Part shown: positions 53,184 through 63,153 of the stretch, piece after piece
Position numbering within the stretch: position 1 is the stretch's first letter
How the letters are laid out: the number at the start of each line of letters is the position of its first letter
Assembly (NCBI GenBank): GCA_963727485.1
Contig: CAVSGM010000003.1
Coordinates: forward strand, 1 to 64,000
Direction: 5' to 3'
Source: an uncultured delta proteobacterium
GTDB taxonomy: Bacteria > Myxococcota > Myxococcia > SLRQ01
Length of the DNA: 64,000 bases
Made by a program: the position numbers and the translations under genes
The notes under the pieces: model-generated
Seen by the model: the letters and a program-made list of their open reading frames with translations, nothing else
Databases searched by the model: none
What the model was told of the DNA's origin: nothing

Positions 53184-55194
53184 ATGTGCCCTGCCTTCTG
53201 GCCCCCGGAACCCCTCGTGAACCAGCAGATCGGCCGGTACCGGCTCCTCAAGCGCCTCGCCCTCGGTGGCATGGCCGAGATCTGGCTCGCCCGCCAGGGT
53301 GGCGCCCAGGGTTTCGAGAAGCTGGTGGTGATCAAGCGGATCCTACCGCATCTCGCCGAGAACCCGGAGTTCGTGGAGATGTTCCTCGACGAGGCGCGCC
53401 TCGTGGCCCACCTCAGCCACCCGAACATCGCCCAGATCTACGACCTGGGCCACGAGGACGGCAGCTACTTCATCGCCATGGAGCACGTCCACGGCGAGAA
53501 CCTGCGCACCGTGCTCAAGCGCCGCGGCGAGCTCGGGCTCGGGGCCCTGCCCGGACCGCTGGTCGCCCGCATCGGCGCCGCCTGCTGCCAGGCGCTCGCC
53601 TACGCCCACGCCGCCACCGACGCCGGGGGCCGGCCCCTGAACGTGGTCCACCGGGACGTGAGCCCCCAGAACCTCCTCCTCGCCTACGACGGCCAGGTGA
53701 AGGTCGTGGACTTCGGCATCGCCAAGGCGGCGACCCAGGCGGTGGAGACCCGCACCGGGGTGCTCAAGGGCAAGTACAGCTACATGTCGCCGGAGCACTG
53801 CAAGGGCGACCCCCTCGACGGGCGCTCGGACCTCTTCGCCCTGGGGGTGGTGCTCTGGGAGCTGGTCAGCGGCCGCCGGCTCTACAGCCGCACGACCGAC
53901 ATGCAGACCTTCATGGCCATCTGCAACGAGCCGCCGCCGAGCCTGGCCGAGGTGGGCGCCGAGGTCTCGGCGTCCCTGGACTCGGTGATCCGAAGGGCCC
54001 TGGAGAAGGACCGCGACGCCCGGTTCGCCGATGGCTACCAGATGGCCGACGCCCTCGAGCGCTACCTCCGGGAGCTCGAGGCGCCGGTGACCCAGCGCGA
54101 CCTGGCCGCGTCGATGGAGGGGCTCTTCGCCGAGCGCATCGCCGGGTGGCGCACGCTGCTCCAGGGCGACGCCGCCGAGGTGGACGAGGCCCTGATGGGC
54201 GCGCGCTCGGATCTCTTCCAGCAGGGGACCCCCTCGCGGTCGGCGCAGCCGGCGCCCGAGGGGTCGGCCCCGGACCTCGCCACCGGGGCCACGGTGATCC
54301 GGCCCGATGCCGTGGCACCTGCGGCGCCGGTGGTCGTGCCGGTGGCCCTCGCGGGCAGTGACGATCCCGCCGACGAGGCGACCCGTCTCCGGGGTGCGGT
54401 CCCCGACGCCGAAGCCGCCGCGCGCCGACGCGGCCGCCGACGCCGGTGCGGGCGCCCCTGGCGAGCCCCGGCCCCGGCGGCCCCTGCTCTTCGGGGGCCT
54501 GGCGGTGGCGACGGCGGGGGTGGTCGCGGCGGTGCTCCTGGCCCTGGGGCACTCGGCCAAGGCCCCGGCGCATGCCGTCGCGTCGGCCCACCCGGCTCCG
54601 TCGACCGGGCTGACCGCACCCGCGCCCGCACCCGCGCCCGCGCCCCCGGCGGCCCCCTCGAAGCCCGCGGTGGCTCCCCGGACGCCCTCGCCGGCCCCCG
54701 CGGCGCACCCGATCCCACCTCGCCAGGCGCCGCCCGTCCACCACCCGGCCCCGGTCCACCACCTGCCGCACGTCCACCCTGCCGCCCCCGGCCACCTCAC
54801 CTTCGACGCCCGCCCCTGGTGCCGGGTCACCCTCGACGGCCACGCCCTGGGGACCACGCCGCTCGCCCGGGTCGCCGTCGCCGCCGGGGCCCACCGCCTG
54901 GTCTGCACCGGCCCCGGGGGCGCCGAGCAGCGCCTCACCCTCCACGTGGCCCCCGGCCAGACCGTGCGCCGGCGGGTCTCCTTCGAGCCCGGTCACCTCG
55001 CCTTCCGGGTCAAGCCCTGGGGCCGGGTCGCCGTCGACGGCCAGGACCTGGGGATCACGCCGCTCCCGGCGAAGGCCGTCCCCCCGGGGCCCCACCGGGT
55101 GGTGGTGACCAACGCCAAGCTCGGCGCCCGGCGCACCCTGAAGGTCGACGTCGCCGCCGGGAAGACCCGGGTGGTCAGCGTCGACCTGCGGTGA
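53184..55194 (+). CDS. Membrane Ser/Thr protein kinase with PEGA-like C-terminal repeats; frameshift at ~54390-54420
   Basis: GGMAEI, VVIKR, HRDVSPQN, DFG, YMSPE, DLFALG; TM LLFGGLAV...; two PWxRVxxDG..LGxTPL repeats. Start 53184 or 53217. Confidence 0.9.
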
Positions 55195-55222: not shown

Positions 55223-56855
55223 CTAGGGGCAGTTGCTCCCGGGGGTGAGGCACTGGCCCCCGCACATGCACACCGTCTTGACCGGACAGTGGTCGGTGCA
55301 GAGCCCCGAGGAGCAGCTGGCGTTGCAGCCGATCCCGCAGGCGGTGCCGTCGGTGTTCCGGGTGCAGCTGGTGGTGTCGGTCTGGGTGGAGCTGGTGCCG
55401 CCGCAGGTGCCGCCGCCGCAGGTGTAGGCGGTGCAGGTCCTCGTCCGCGTCCCGGTGTTGCTGCAGGTGCCCGAGAAGGTGCAGGCGCTCCAGGCCCCGC
55501 AGCTCCCGCTGGCGCAGGTGGCACCCGCGTTCCCGGGGCTCCAGCCGGTGGTCGAGGCCGAAGGGTCGCAGACCTCGCACCCGTTCGCCGGGTTCTGGGT
55601 GCCCGGGAGCCAGGTCTGGCCGCCGATGGTGCAGCCGGTGACGCAGGCGCCGGTGGCGTCGCAGGCCTTGCCGGTGCCGCAGACGGCGCCGGTGGCCAGC
55701 GCCGGGTGGGTGCAGGCGCCGCTGGCGCAGAGGTCCGCGGTGCAGGGATCCGAGTCGGAGGCGCAGGCCGTCCCGTCGGTGTTCAAGGTGCAGCTCTGCT
55801 TCTGGGTGACGCTCCCGGAGGTGCAGCTCCCCGCCTGGCAGGCGGGCTGGGTGCAGGTGCGGCTCTGGGTGCCGGTGGTGTCGCAGGGGCCGGCGCCGGC
55901 GGCGGGCCCGCAGCTGCCCCACGCCCCGCAGCCGGTGATGGCGCCGCAGGTGGTGCCGTTGGACACCGGGGTGAAGGCGCTGGTGGACGTCGCCGGGTCG
56001 CAGGTCTGGCAGGCGTTGGCCGGGTTGGGGTCGCTGCCGGCGTAGAGGGTGCCGCCCACGTAGCAGCCGGACCGGCAGGCGCCGGTGGCGTCACAGACCT
56101 GGCCGGTGCCGCAGCCGGTCCCCGGCGGCCGCCTGGCTCCAGGCGGTCCCCGAGGAGGCGGGGTCGCAGACCTGGCAGGGGTTGGCGGGGTTCACCGCCC
56201 CGGCGGCGTAGTGGTTGGTGCCGATGTCGCAGCCGGCGCTGCAGCTGCCGCTGCCGTCGCACTGGCCGGTCCCGCCGCAGGTCGTCCCCTGGGCCGAGGC
56301 CGGGTGGGTGCAGGCGCCGCTGGCGCAGACGTCGTCGGTGCAGGGGTTCTGGTCGCTGGCGCAGGGGGTGCTGTCGGCGGCGGCGACGAAGCCGGTGGGG
56401 TTCGCCGAGGGATCGCAGACCTGGCAGGCGTTGGCGGGGTTGGCGTCCCCGGGGGCGTAGGGGGTGCCCTCGGCCAGACACCCGTGGAAGCAGGCGCCGG
56501 CGCTGCACACCCCCGCCTGGCCGCCGGTGGTGGTGCAGGCGGTCCCGTCACCGCAGCCCGCGCAGGGGTTGCCGCCGCTGGTGCCGCAGGCCGGGCCCGC
56601 GTCGGGGGTCCCGGCGTCGGTCACCCCGGCGTCGGCGATCCCGCCGTCGGTCACCCCGCCGTCGCCCCCGCCCTGGCCCACGTGCGCCGGGTTCCGGCAG
56701 GTCCCCTGGTCGCACACCAGCCCCGAGGCGCAGCCCCCGTCGGGATCACAGGGGAAGCCCTCGCGCTGGGTGTCCACCTTGACGCCGCAGGCGACGAAGG
56801 TGGCCGTGGCGGCCAGCCACAACATGAGGGCGAGGGAGCGGACGTGGCGGTGCAT
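55223..56855 (-). CDS. Cys-rich repeat lipoprotein, paralog of 30240-32551; frameshift at ~56121
   Basis: FVAC-GVKVDTQREGFPCDPDGGC N-terminus; an extra base in the C4 run 56120-56123 separates ORFs 56091..56855 and 55223..56059. Confidence 0.82.
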
Positions 56856-59142: not shown

Positions 59143-59247
59143 ATGCGCTTCGTCTACCTCCTCGACTCGGATCACGCCCTGGAGGACGTCACCGAGCGGG
59201 TGTGGTCGGTGGCCTCCGCCCTGGTGACCCCGCTGCTCCGCCGGTAG
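59143..59247 (+). CDS. Possible 34-aa small protein
   Basis: ATG...TAG, MRFVYLLDSDHALEDVTERVWSVASALVTPLLRR; third positions nearly all G/C; ends 11 bp before the cyclase GTG. Confidence 0.35.
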   Translation: MRFVYLLDSDHALEDVTERVWSVASALVTPLLRR

Positions 59248-59258
59248 GATGGGGGCCC

Positions 59259-61694
59259 GTGCCCGGGCCCTCCGACAGCGGCGACCTCGAGCGCCTCATC
59301 GCCGAGCGCGAGGACATCGAGCGCCGGCTCCGGGAGCACCACGCCCGGCGCCTGGGGATCCTCTTCAGCGACATCGTCGGCTCCACCGAGATCTTCGAGC
59401 GCCAGGGGGACATCGCCGGCCTCGCCCTGGTGCGCCGGCACAACGCCCTCCTCTTCCCGGTGGTCGAGGGCCACCGGGGGCGGGTGGTCAAGACCATCGG
59501 CGACGCCATCCTGGCGGTCTTCGACGACCCGGCCGACGGGGTGCGCTGCGCGGTGGCGATGCAGCAGGCCCTGGCCCGGGCCCGCCAGACCGACCCCGCC
59601 GCGGCGCCGATCCACATCCGGGTGGGGGTCCACGCCGGCGAGGCGATGCTCGACGGCGGCGACGTCTTCGGCGACGCGGTGAACACCGCCGCCCGGGTGG
59701 TGGGGCAGGCCGGCGGCGACGAGGTGCTGGTGAGCCAGGCCCTCTTCGACGCCCTCCCGGCGGGCCACGGCCTCGACGGCCGGCCCCGGGGGGCGGTGGC
59801 CCTCAAGGGCAAGCGGGACCCGGTGCCCCTGGTGGCGGTGGCCTGGGACGGAGCACCGGCCGCGCCGCCGCCGGCGGACGCGCGCCTCGCCGCGCCGTCG
59901 GGGGACGCCGACGCGGACCGGCCGATCTTCGTCCTCGATCTCGGCCTCGGACCGAGGGGCCTGCGGGTCGCCGCGGTGGACGGCCCCGGGGACAAGGGCC
60001 CGGTGCGCGCCTACGCCGAGCCCGGCCTCGATCTCGCCGGCCTCGACGCCCTCGCCGGCCACTTCGCCGCCTACCTCGACGGCGACGCCGACGCCGGCAC
60101 CTACGCCGACGGCCTCGAGGCCGCCGGCCGCGAGCTCTTCGACACCGCCCTCTCCGACCGGGCCCGGCGCCACCTCCGGGAGACCGGCTGCCACTACCTG
60201 CGCCTCCACCTCGACGACGCCCTGGCCCACCTCCCCTGGGAGCTCGCCCACGACGGCACCGCCTGTCTTGGTGGGCGCTTCGCCGTGGGCCGGGTGGTGG
60301 AGACCCGCAGCGACGAGGGCGAGGGGAGCGTCATCGCCTACCGCCCCGGGACGGGCCACGCCCTGGTGGTCTCGGACCCCACCGGTGATCTCCCCGAGGC
60401 GCGGCGCGAGGGCGAGGCGGTGGCCGGCCTCTACCGCGAGGGCTTCGGCGGCGAGGTCCGCCACCTCGCCGGCCCGGTCACCCGCGAGGCGCTGCTGGCG
60501 GCGCTCCCCGGGTGCCGGATCCTCCACTTCGCCGGCCACGTGATCCGCGGCGGCGCCGACGCCGACGGGGGCTTCCAGCTCGCCGACGGCCTGCTCCCGG
60601 CCTCGGCCATCGCCCACGCCGTGGGCTCGGCGCCCCCGGAGCTGGTCTTCGCCAACGGCTGCCACGGCGGCGGCGACCGGGCCTTCACCGACGGCGCGCG
60701 CCGGGCCGGGAGCGTCGCCGCCTCGCTGCTCCTCGGTGGGGTGGGCCACTTCCTCGGGCCCCTGGGGCGGGTCCCCGACGCCGACGCCCTCGCCTTCGCC
60801 CTGCGCTTCCACGAGGTGATCCTCGCCGGCCAGCCCTACGGCGAGGCGGTGCGCCTGGCCCGGGAGGCGCTCCAGGCCAACCGGCGCCTCGCCTTCGCCC
60901 GCTACCTCTTCTATGGCGAGCCACGCAGCGCCCTCGAATCCGGCCCTGGCCCGGCGCCAGGTCGAGGCCACCCGGTCGTTCCCGCCCCGGGCGATCCCCG
61001 AGGCGGTCACCGGTGAGACCCGGCGGCGGTGGACCCGGTGGCAGCGCCGGCGACCCCGGCGACGCCCGCGACACGGGGGACGGGCGGCCGGATCGGGGTG
61101 GGCCTGGGGATCGTCGCGGTGGCGGCGGCGGGGGGGCTGTGGCTCACCCGGCACCTGGTCACCCGGAAGCCCGCCGCGCCGACCGCGCCCATGGCGAAGC
61201 AGGCCCTGCCCCCGGCCCGGGCGAGGCCGGCAGACCCCGCGCAGAAGGCCGCCCCGCGCACCGGCCCGGTGACCATCGCCGTCCTCCCCTTCAAGAACCT
61301 CACCGGCACTTCGGCCCTCCAGCCGCTCGCCGAGGGCCTCACCGAGTCGGTGATCACCGGCTTCGCCGGCGCCGAGGGCATCCACCTCGTGGAGCACGTG
61401 CAGATCGGCGCCGACGTCCACTACCAGGCGTGGACCCACTCCAAGTACGTCGACCCGGCGACCCGGGCGCGCATCGGGAAGATCGTCGGCTGCGAGGTGG
61501 TGGTCCTCGGGGGCTACCAGAAGGCCGGCCACGTCCTCCGGGCCACGGCGCGGCTGGTGCGGGTGGACACCGGGGAGATCCTGGCGGCGGTGGAGGTGGA
61601 GCGGCCCCAGGCGAAGGTCTTCGCCCTCCAGGACGCGGTGGCCAAGGCCCTGCGCGGGGACCTCCCGGCGGTGGAGAAGGTGCTGCGGCCGTGA
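59259..61694 (+). CDS. Class III adenylate cyclase, CHAT (caspase-like) protease, TM and CsgG/TolB-like fusion; interrupted at 60936-61021
   Basis: FSDIVGST, VKTIGDA, DVFGDAVNTAAR; LPWELA, ILHFAGH, VFANGC; TM IGVGLGIVAVAAAGGLWL; IAVLPFKNL. Both halves are in the same frame across TGA 61014-61016. Confidence 0.75.
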
Positions 61695-63153
61695 GGCGCG
61701 CGGTCACCCCGGGCCTCGTCGCCGGGCTCATCGCTGTCGCCCTCGCCTTTGCGCCCCGGTCCGCCCGGGCGGGGAAGGCGGGGGCGTCTCCGGCCCGGTG
61801 GCGGTGCTCCCCTTCAAGAACCTCAACCAGGATCCCAAGCTCGACTGGCTGTCCGTGGGCATCGCCGAGACCATGGTCTCCGACGTGAAGAAGAGCGGCG
61901 GGGTGCAGGTGGTCGAGCGCGACCAAATCGACAAGGCGCTCGCCCAGATCGCGCTCCAGGGCGAGGTGAAGCTGGCGCCGGCCACCGCGGTGAAGGTGGG
62001 CAAGCTCGTCGGCGCCAGGACCATCGTCCTCGGCGCCTACCAGGAGGCGGGCAACACCGTGCGCATCACCGCGCGCTTCGTCTCGGTGGAGACCGGGGTG
62101 GTGAACGACGCCGCCAAGGTCACCGGGCCGCTCACCCGCATCTTCCACCTCCAGGACGCCATCGTGGCCCGGCTCCTGGGGCGTCCCCATGGACACCGCT
62201 ACCACGCGCCGAAGCGAGAGAAGGGCAGCGCCCGGACGGTGAAGGCCTACCGGCTCTACGCCATGAGCCTCTCCGTGGCCTCCGACGCCCAGCGGGTCAC
62301 CTACCTGAAGCAGGCGGTGAAGGTGGACCCGCACTTCCACTACGCGGCCGACGCCCTCGCGGCCCTGCAGCGGCGGATGCAGGGGTACGCCGCCGCCGAC
62401 CTCGCGGCCCGGAAGCAGGCCGCGGCCACCCTCCGGGCCCGCCTCGGGCGGCCCGGGCTCGATCCCAGGGTCCGGGCCCAGGAGGCCTTCCAGCTCCTCA
62501 CCGCGAGCCTCGGCAGCCGCCGCTACCACCAGTTGAGCCACGACGCCGGCATCGTGCTCAGCCTTCGCTGGAAGCCGCAGCCGGGGGGGGTGGACGTCCA
62601 GGAGTACGCCGGCTTCTGTCGCTTCGAGGCCCACTACTTCCTGGGGGACTACGACCTGGCGTTGCAGTACGGCGAGCACTTCCTCAAGGCCTACCCCGGC
62701 GGCACCTACTACGGCGCGGTGGAGGGCCTGATGAACCAGATGATCGCCGAGAAGCGCAAGGTCGAGGAGGGCAAGGTGGCGCTGCGGGACGAGTACGCCA
62801 AGCTGGAGAAGAAGCGGGCCGACGCGGTCGCCAAGGCCCGGCGGCAGCACCAGGCGCCCAACCGCTACCTGATCCGGGGGCTCGACCTCCAGCGGTGCGA
62901 CAAGGCCATGTCCCTCGACCAGTGGCGGACGGCCGTCCACGAGTGCCAGGCGTTCATCGCGGCCCATGGGCACGACAGCGACGAGGGCGCCGTGAGCCTG
63001 GCGAACGTCGCCAGCTACGACGTGATCCAGGCCTACGTCCACCTGGGGAGGTTCGACGACGCCCGGCGACTGGCCAAGAAGCTGATCAAGCGTGCGCCCA
63101 AGTGGTCGCGAACCACGGGCATCGCCACCCAGATGGCCTACTGGCCCCGGTGA
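61691..63153 (+). CDS. Secreted CsgG/TolB-like domain plus TPR-like helical protein; frameshift at ~61782
   Basis: GTGA start/stop overlap; signal VRRAVTPGLVAGLIAVALAFAPRSARA; VAVLPFKNL...VVERDQI...VGKLVGA...VRITARFVSVETG; helical repeats. Confidence 0.78.

Follow-up and report, generated by a model that had tools for sequence, protein, structure and literature searches.

The window discussed here is a stretch of 64,000 nucleotides (nt) that forms the beginning of contig C3 in the genome of an uncultured member of the Myxococcota (5.55 Mb, 73% G+C, 14 contigs). Near its end the window holds two genes whose predicted products are a membrane receptor and a secreted partner (Table 1). The receptor joins a class III nucleotide cyclase, a CHAT (caspase-HetF) protease, a linker, one transmembrane (TM) helix and a CsgG/FlgO-like domain in one chain, and the partner carries a second CsgG/FlgO-like domain followed by TPR-like helices. 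Judged from its sequence, the pair is real and conserved, an undescribed variant on the themes of receptor cyclases and of CHAT signalling at the membrane. Near-identical DNA is present in sediment and salt-marsh sequencing runs, and the homologues that carry names come from Deltaproteobacteria, Myxococcaceae and Myxococcota records.

Table 1. Features of the receptor and partner genes (positions in the window; aa, amino acids)
Feature	Coordinates	Strand	Basis or remark
Receptor gene, ~811 aa when both assembly indels are bridged; cyclase - CHAT - linker - TM - CsgG/FlgO-like	59259..61694	+	Intact homologues
Class III nucleotide cyclase domain; adenine-type Lys/Asp, both metal Asp, Asn/Arg	59346..59849	+	Pfam
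Conserved ~130 aa N-terminal part of the CHAT module, found ahead of the core in most homologues	59907..60305	+	
CHAT protease core; His codon 60537-60539, Cys codon 60660-60662	60348..60932	+	
Out-of-frame segment between two compensating indel errors	60936..61021	+	Extra base in GAATC ~60937; second break ~61017-61021; yields false TGA 61014
TRS motif, invariant Arg in an otherwise unconserved linker; candidate self-cleavage/self-inhibition site	60970..60978	+ (shifted frame)	
Single TM helix	61092..61148	+	Mean hydropathy 1.93 over 19 residues
Extracytoplasmic CsgG/FlgO/TolB-N-like domain, C-terminal (predicted)	61257..61691	+	
Partner gene, ~487 aa through one indel at 61780-61784; begins in GTGA overlap	61691..63153	+	
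Sec-type signal peptide without a lipobox; as assembled, not in frame with the remainder	61691..61780	+	
Partner CsgG/FlgO-like domain	61795..62190	+	Pfam, comparison with receptor domain
Partner helical/TPR-like region, two conserved Cys	62230..63150	+	Pfam, alignment

The first-pass annotation had described a fused cyclase-CHAT-TM-CsgG-like chain with intact catalytic residues, and this is borne out by Pfam and by the alignment of homologues. In the open reading frame (ORF) at 59259-61013, Guanylate_cyc is matched at aa 30-186 (E 5.5e-17, 62.4 bits, cut-off 21.9) and CHAT at aa 288-543 (E 1.9e-23, 83.8 bits, cut-off 24). The ORF at 61017-61691 matches FlgO over the cut-off (1.8e-5) and CsgG weakly, and the partner ORF at 61798-63150 matches FlgO, CsgG and TPR. 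The motifs FSDI, VKTIGDA, GDVFGDAVNTAAR, LHFAGH and FANGC are present. The roles of the six cyclase residues are well established, and all six are found in 33 of the 35 aligned homologues, the other two being truncated. The His-Cys dyad of the CHAT domain is found in all 35. By Pfam score and residues the first domain is classed as a class III adenylate cyclase, and by Pfam score and dyad the second is classed as a CHAT protease. The solved cyclase nearest to the family profile is Ma1120 from Mycobacterium avium (PDB 4wp3/4wp9, E 8e-44), which shares the catalytic cyclase domain only. The only CHAT structure matched by the family profile is 8rot (DdvA, E 2e-4), and a phmmer search of the CHAT region against the PDB gave nothing useful. 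An N-in topology is predicted from charge and hydropathy because the receptor has no signal peptide and because Lys and Arg are more frequent before the TM helix in 19 of 29 receptors.

As assembled, the receptor is interrupted by a TGA at 61014 whose flanking halves lie in one frame, and reading through with X at two breaks gives 811 aa; both observations had been made in the first-pass annotation and were reproduced. Both breaks are assembly errors. This is concluded because in a genome-wide test the codon phase shifted by one base at 190 of the 400 coding GAATC/GATTC sites that could be scored (about 1% for the control motifs, GATC 17/2540 and CAATC/GATTG 6/662), because a 151-nt contig from run X4 (60815-60966, depth 2.9) is without base 60937, because P0033, from a near-identical genome that is broken elsewhere, switches window frames at both breaks in the expected sense, and because the shifted 26-residue segment encodes TRS, the conserved linker motif of the family. 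The X4 contig reaches 29 bases past the site, just below the bridging criterion of 31, and is weak alone. The shifted frame scores 1027 bits versus 1014 for the frame as assembled. Systematic one-base insertions that turn GATC into GAATC/GATTC would fit a long-read error at methylated GATC. It had been suggested that this error occurs four other times in the window; there are 14 such sites, three others could be scored, and the suggestion held for two of them (13988 and 25413). GAATG/CATTC sites were shifted in the opposite sense in 15 of 111 cases and are perhaps a second error motif. A third break lies at a G run (61780-61784, break at ~61780) between the signal peptide and the body of the partner. 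No contig bridges it and its assignment rests on homologues: it is taken as an error because most partner homologues carry a hydrophobic leader (103 of 120 in a crude test; 14 not scorable and three under the bar). About half of the scorable GAATC/GATTC sites being shifted, split genes throughout this assembly should be distrusted.

The fused receptor gene is found in all four other genomes of the same family, and each of the five family genomes has one copy. A protein search returned about 30 homologues that are single chains of 739-861 aa, so the proposition that homologues are always split and unlinked does not hold.

For the partner, the GTG start at 61691 within the GTGA overlap stands as first proposed, but the signal peptide is not in frame with the VAVLPFKNL domain as had been implied. 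The homology of the receptor and partner CsgG-like domains was confirmed (39% identity over 128 aa, E 2e-29). One of the two conserved Cys residues of the partner is invariant in 112 sequences. Among solved sequences, FlgO (58 chains per entry) comes closest to the partner profile, at an E of only 0.23. In the ESM Atlas the neighbours of the partner are uncharacterised CsgG/HfaB-TPR clusters (0.95-0.96), and the first match of the receptor is a longer subfamily (0.82), which serves as a lead only. Membership in the curli CsgG or flagellar FlgO systems was considered and rejected, as the domain matches are partial and near threshold, there is no lipobox and no such operon is present.

The receptor of the type studied here (the short type) occurs in 19 of 401 genomes of the phylum (E<=1e-25) and in 11 of 251 genomes of the class; genome G081 was excluded from every count. 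A partner homologue is present in all 19, as the first reading of the locus required, and lies directly downstream in 15. A 4-nt [AG]TGA overlap was found at 11 of the 12 other adjacent junctions that were read, a count that leaves out G090 and G198, and at the studied one. In G004 the two genes are separated by a 15-nt gap, and the leader in G048 is unusually long. The overlap and the leader in homologues support the earlier proposal of a translationally coupled, secreted partner with a homologous domain. The receptor and partner trees are mirror-like; at the level of these trees, in which most deep forks are unsettled, this shows co-inheritance only and not co-evolution. In G198 (L251:2-8101) a long gene whose sequence resembles TPR and CHAT is followed, about 4 kb downstream, by a second copy of the partner.

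Variation in architecture was followed in 172 proteins, 35 from the homologue search and 137 from a second set. Cyclase-CHAT-CsgG-like chains make up 87 of these, 30 are CHAT-CsgG-like without the cyclase, a few have a swapped order, and in 32 cyclase-CHAT proteins no outer domain was detected (fragments, or chains that end otherwise). Among 20 proteins chosen for Pfam, the position ahead of CHAT is taken by a TIR domain in P0215 and P0257 and by a kinase plus cyclase in P0199, and P0178 has the order cyclase-TM-outer C14 caspase-CsgG-like. Cyclase, TIR and kinase are enzyme types that are activated by proximity. An exported C14 caspase in G047 (L252:3940-5475) also ends C-terminally in the same CsgG-like domain.

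A second subfamily of 900-1140 aa carries TPRs in the receptor chain itself. This longer type was found in a metagenome-assembled genome of the Thermodesulfobacteriota and in metagenomes, and at about 33% identity it is a sister subfamily of the short type. Two of the four longer-type loci read (L043 and L126) have a gene for a sigma factor of the extracytoplasmic function (ECF) group and an anti-sigma-like gene upstream; CHAT is absent in L128 and its dyad is lost in L123. Neither hallmark, TPR in the receptor chain or sigma/anti-sigma genes upstream, is found at the studied locus. The longer-type loci (L043:4476-8571, L126:1234-9818, L123 and L128) also contain a FadL-like barrel and a secreted Ig/CsgG-like partner, and their anti-sigma-like proteins contain words of a hydrophobic or small residue, Arg and Gly or Ser.

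The region behind CHAT is rich in Pro and Ala and cannot be aligned save for one motif, in which the Arg column is invariant (alignment A3). The pattern [TVLIM]-R-[SGAT], hydrophobic-Arg-small and mostly TRS, is found 14-20 residues past CHAT in 46 of 46 short-type receptors, with P2 Thr in 30 and P1' Ser in 33. In 1000 shuffles the motif appeared in a mean of 14 and at most 26 of the 46 linkers, and control linkers contained it in 7 of 43 and 4 of 26 cases. In the other 70 CHAT-TM-CsgG-like proteins it was found over the same interval in 30 (shuffle mean 11.6, maximum 23). This conservation makes the motif a candidate site of self-cleavage or self-inhibition. The cut of separase falls after Arg, and that of craspases after Met or Leu (PMC11506125).

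Comparison with known systems shows partial likenesses. DdvA/DdvS of Myxococcus xanthus (PMC11506125) includes a one-pass membrane protein with a CHAT His-Cys dyad, also from a myxobacterium, and trans-autoproteolysis of a flexible linker beside the TM helix has been proposed for it; its CHAT structure is the one matched by the family profile. However, DdvA has its TPR-CHAT portion in the periplasm and an anti-sigma domain in the cytoplasm, whereas here CHAT is predicted to be cytoplasmic and is fused to a cyclase, the outer domain is of the CsgG/FlgO-like type, a separate partner is secreted, and there is no sigma factor or CRISPR/CBASS island. Assignment as a DdvA-type anti-sigma factor was rejected, as CHAT precedes the TM helix together with the cyclase and the flanking genes encode glycogen phosphorylase and DapD. 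The SAVED-CHAT/PCaspase system of Haliangium ochraceum (10.1101/2023.06.23.546230) and the Craspase Csx29-Csx30-CASP-sigma system (PMC10028731) resemble it in having a signal-controlled cytoplasmic CHAT that oligomerisation can activate. The present receptor differs in lacking SAVED, cytoplasmic TPRs and Cas genes, and in having a membrane anchor, its own cyclase and a predicted outside input; membership was rejected on the lack of a TPR or SAVED domain fused to CHAT and of Cas genes in the locus.

Closest in the arrangement of the cyclase are the class III cyclase-TolB-like-TPR receptors (JGI "class 3 adenylate cyclase/TolB-like protein"; TIGR04510; L111), in which a cyclase is likewise linked through a TM helix to an IAVLPF-type domain and TPRs. 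They have no CHAT, and their TPRs are in the same chain, whereas here they are on a second, secreted chain with a second domain copy. The peptide modification system cyclase TIGR04510 itself was rejected (36 bits here and 31-42 for intact homologues versus more than 400 required). The EACC1-caspase "System 4" of Kaur et al. 2020 (PMC7159879) is a predicted two-gene membrane system with an N-terminal caspase or cyclic nucleotide monophosphate (cNMP) cyclase, for which autoproteolysis was also proposed. Its partner, unlike the present one, is a small TM protein, EACC1, and caspase and cyclase alternate and are not in tandem. Neither CHAT nor CsgG appears in the main text of that paper. Pycsar was rejected, with a weak PycC match (35.7 bits), adenine-type residues and a partner without a cNMP-binding domain. 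The statement that no characterised system has this architecture holds for the main texts of the open-licence papers and preprints searched, in which no description of it was found; the source data of PMC7159879 could list it.

Comparative analysis has shown the architecture, the intact active-site residues, the coupling-type overlap, the co-inheritance and the invariant linker Arg, and on these a working model can be built. The receptor would be a one-pass inner-membrane protein with its cyclase and CHAT domains in the cytoplasm and its CsgG/FlgO-like domain outside, and the partner, made in step with it, would be a secreted protein with the same domain and TPR-like helices. The two homologous outer domains may bind each other, and the TPR part of the partner may sense an envelope or extracellular ligand. 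Sensing would alter the oligomeric state of the receptor and switch on the cyclase, class III cyclases being known to require a dimer. The resulting cyclic AMP (cAMP) would reach the many cNMP-binding proteins of the genome, in which profile searches gave 22 cNMP-binding matches and 16 class III cyclases; the receptor gene is the only CHAT match there, and the CsgG-like profile matches the receptor and partner genes only. Less surely, CHAT may engage the TRS motif 14-20 residues behind it, either as a self-inhibiting pseudo-substrate or by cleaving after the Arg. Cleavage at TRS would release from the membrane a soluble piece of about 570 aa with the cyclase and CHAT, giving a one-way response that is amplified or ended. 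The periplasmic pair would be the ancient core, with cytoplasmic outputs swapped or lost. The first-pass proposal that both enzymes depend on dimers stands for the cyclase. It does not extend to CHAT in general, as separase and the craspase TPR-CHAT are described as monomeric (PMC11506125); SAVED-CHAT is activated through filament formation (10.1101/2023.06.23.546230).

That the two genes form a trans-envelope signalling unit that works in this way, in Myxococcota that are mostly uncultured, is, in our judgment, somewhat probable. A more far-reaching version is tentative, and we would sooner doubt it than rely on it: the partner or its ligand would gather receptors, CHAT would cut its own chain after the TRS Arg and free a soluble cyclase-protease, and bacteria would use the CsgG/FlgO-like pair generally as a module for clustering in the periplasm, joined to outputs of the cyclase, CHAT, TIR and kinase types.

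Several observations weigh against the proposed signalling unit. The partner is not adjacent in four of the 19 receptor genomes: in G047, G082 and G357 it is on another contig (in G082 as partial matches, aa 2-340), and in G003 it lies 4.3 kb off on the opposite strand, duplicated in tandem within a single chain of 919 aa (L022:2751-5510). The charge bias on which the topology is based is tied in six receptors and reversed in four. One orthologue (G047, L214:8533) carries an in-frame TAG near the end of CHAT that parts the enzymes from the TM-CsgG-like portion and may be an error or a natural split. The TRS pattern was defined after inspection of the alignment, cleavage after Arg is not given in view of the varied specificity of CHAT proteases (Met or Leu in craspases), and the motif could instead serve phosphorylation or docking. 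The locus holds neither a dedicated target gene nor a sigma factor. Finally, 15 further genomes of the class have a full-length partner (E<=1e-54) and no match to the CHAT region of the receptor. In all 15 the gene upstream has the same CsgG-like domain, and in 14 it consists of a short tail, a TM helix and this domain, the fifteenth being cut by a contig end. The ATGA overlap is retained at both junctions of these stub pairs that were checked, and the stub domain is under purifying selection (nonsynonymous to synonymous ratio, dN/dS, 0.14-0.50 over 21 pairs from seven genomes, G087 omitted for a gap). The enzymes are thus not the sole reason for the upkeep of the pair, which can, as the stubs indicate, matter without cyclase or CHAT output. 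Because these 15 genomes keep the pair without the enzymes, and because TIR and kinase versions exist, the conserved core is read as a TM-CsgG-like protein plus a secreted CsgG-like-TPR protein, that is, a periplasmic pair with swappable enzymes, of which the cyclase and CHAT are one output.

The same stubs are evidence for the view that the pair is mainly a structural or scaffolding envelope complex, a TM-anchored FlgO/CsgG-like ring in which the cyclase and CHAT are passengers controlled from the cytoplasm and not by the partner; FlgO is itself a ring protein. However, the stubs form one late-branching group within the receptor-domain tree (support 94/84), which fits a loss of the enzymes, and the enzyme-bearing forms span several families. 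Interchangeable, proximity-activated outputs also fit signalling. Many stub tails keep a short (V/L)R(G/S/A)GTL(Y/H)-like motif, and a LytS/LytTR-type two-component pair divergently adjoins the stub in the three loci annotated, so that the stubs may signal in trans. A mainly structural role is considered unlikely. The stub loci L245:6729-8944, L246:3769-6170, L247, L248 and L253 are in large myxobacteria-like genomes, and a LytS/LytTR-type pair also lies 3 kb upstream of the full receptor in G090.

Somewhat harder to sustain is the idea that CHAT cuts a separate substrate encoded elsewhere, such as a soluble anti-sigma factor, and that TRS is a docking or phosphorylation site only. Csx29 cuts the anti-sigma factor Csx30 (PMC10028731), and the ECF sigma and anti-sigma-like genes of L043 and L126 lie directly upstream of the longer-type gene. 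Against this, no sigma gene was found among the annotated neighbours of the short-type loci, and a tblastn search of this genome with the anti-sigma-like proteins of L043 and L126 was empty at E<1e-3, a weak result from two queries. A trans substrate is rated as rather improbable.

The first-pass annotation also entertained a conflict role. In such a system envelope damage would lead through cAMP and caspase-like proteolysis to growth arrest in defence against phage or rival bacteria. CHAT, cyclase and TIR domains are known immune effectors or signal makers, the distribution is patchy (19/401) and the cyclase domain has weak PycC matches. The neighbouring genes give this reading no support in PADLOC or Pfam, and we regard it as quite improbable. 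PADLOC, run on 77 neighbouring ORFs from seven loci, gave generic matches only (kinase, ABC ATPase, helicase, OmpA, PD-(D/E)XK). By Pfam the pair is flanked by glycogen phosphorylase and dapD here and in G003, and ABC-2/GldG-like/DUF4340 genes, gas vesicle genes, response regulators and LytS/LytTR pairs are neighbours at other loci. There is one copy in each of the five family genomes, the codon use resembles that of the host, and no cNMP-activated effector is in the locus. These housekeeping-looking neighbours favour ordinary signalling over defence. Least credible of all is a true stop with a locus split or decaying in this genome, for although the first break is reached by one contig of low depth and the other two by no contig, and P0258, a near-identical relative, likewise starts without an in-frame partner signal peptide, the genome-wide error signature, the frames of P0033, the conserved TRS in the shifted frame and the intact genes in four of four family relatives all speak against it.

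Other features were noted in and around the locus. A scan for promoters and terminators found no promoter and one terminator-like site, not above shuffled sequence. An open frame of about 33 codons with host-like codon bias (59145-59247) lies immediately upstream of the receptor on the same strand. Further upstream, a Ser/Thr kinase gene with TM and PEGA domains (53186-55194) is broken across frames, probably by a further indel, and a Cys-rich repeat lipoprotein-like gene of a type typical of myxobacteria (55223-56855) is broken across two frames.

The pair defines a compact receptor family in which cAMP and caspase-like proteolysis would be outputs of one chain under extracytoplasmic control. 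The linker Arg and the expected fragment size are specific handles for the question of self-cleavage, and genetics is within reach because partner homologues are annotated in the cultured myxobacteria Archangium and Vitiosangium. It is also a system of two proteins in which the role of the widespread "TolB-like/CsgG-like" domain of bacterial receptors can be studied. If the self-shedding and clustering reading is true, it would give the "TolB-like" domain, which is very common in receptor cyclases and kinases, a first function.

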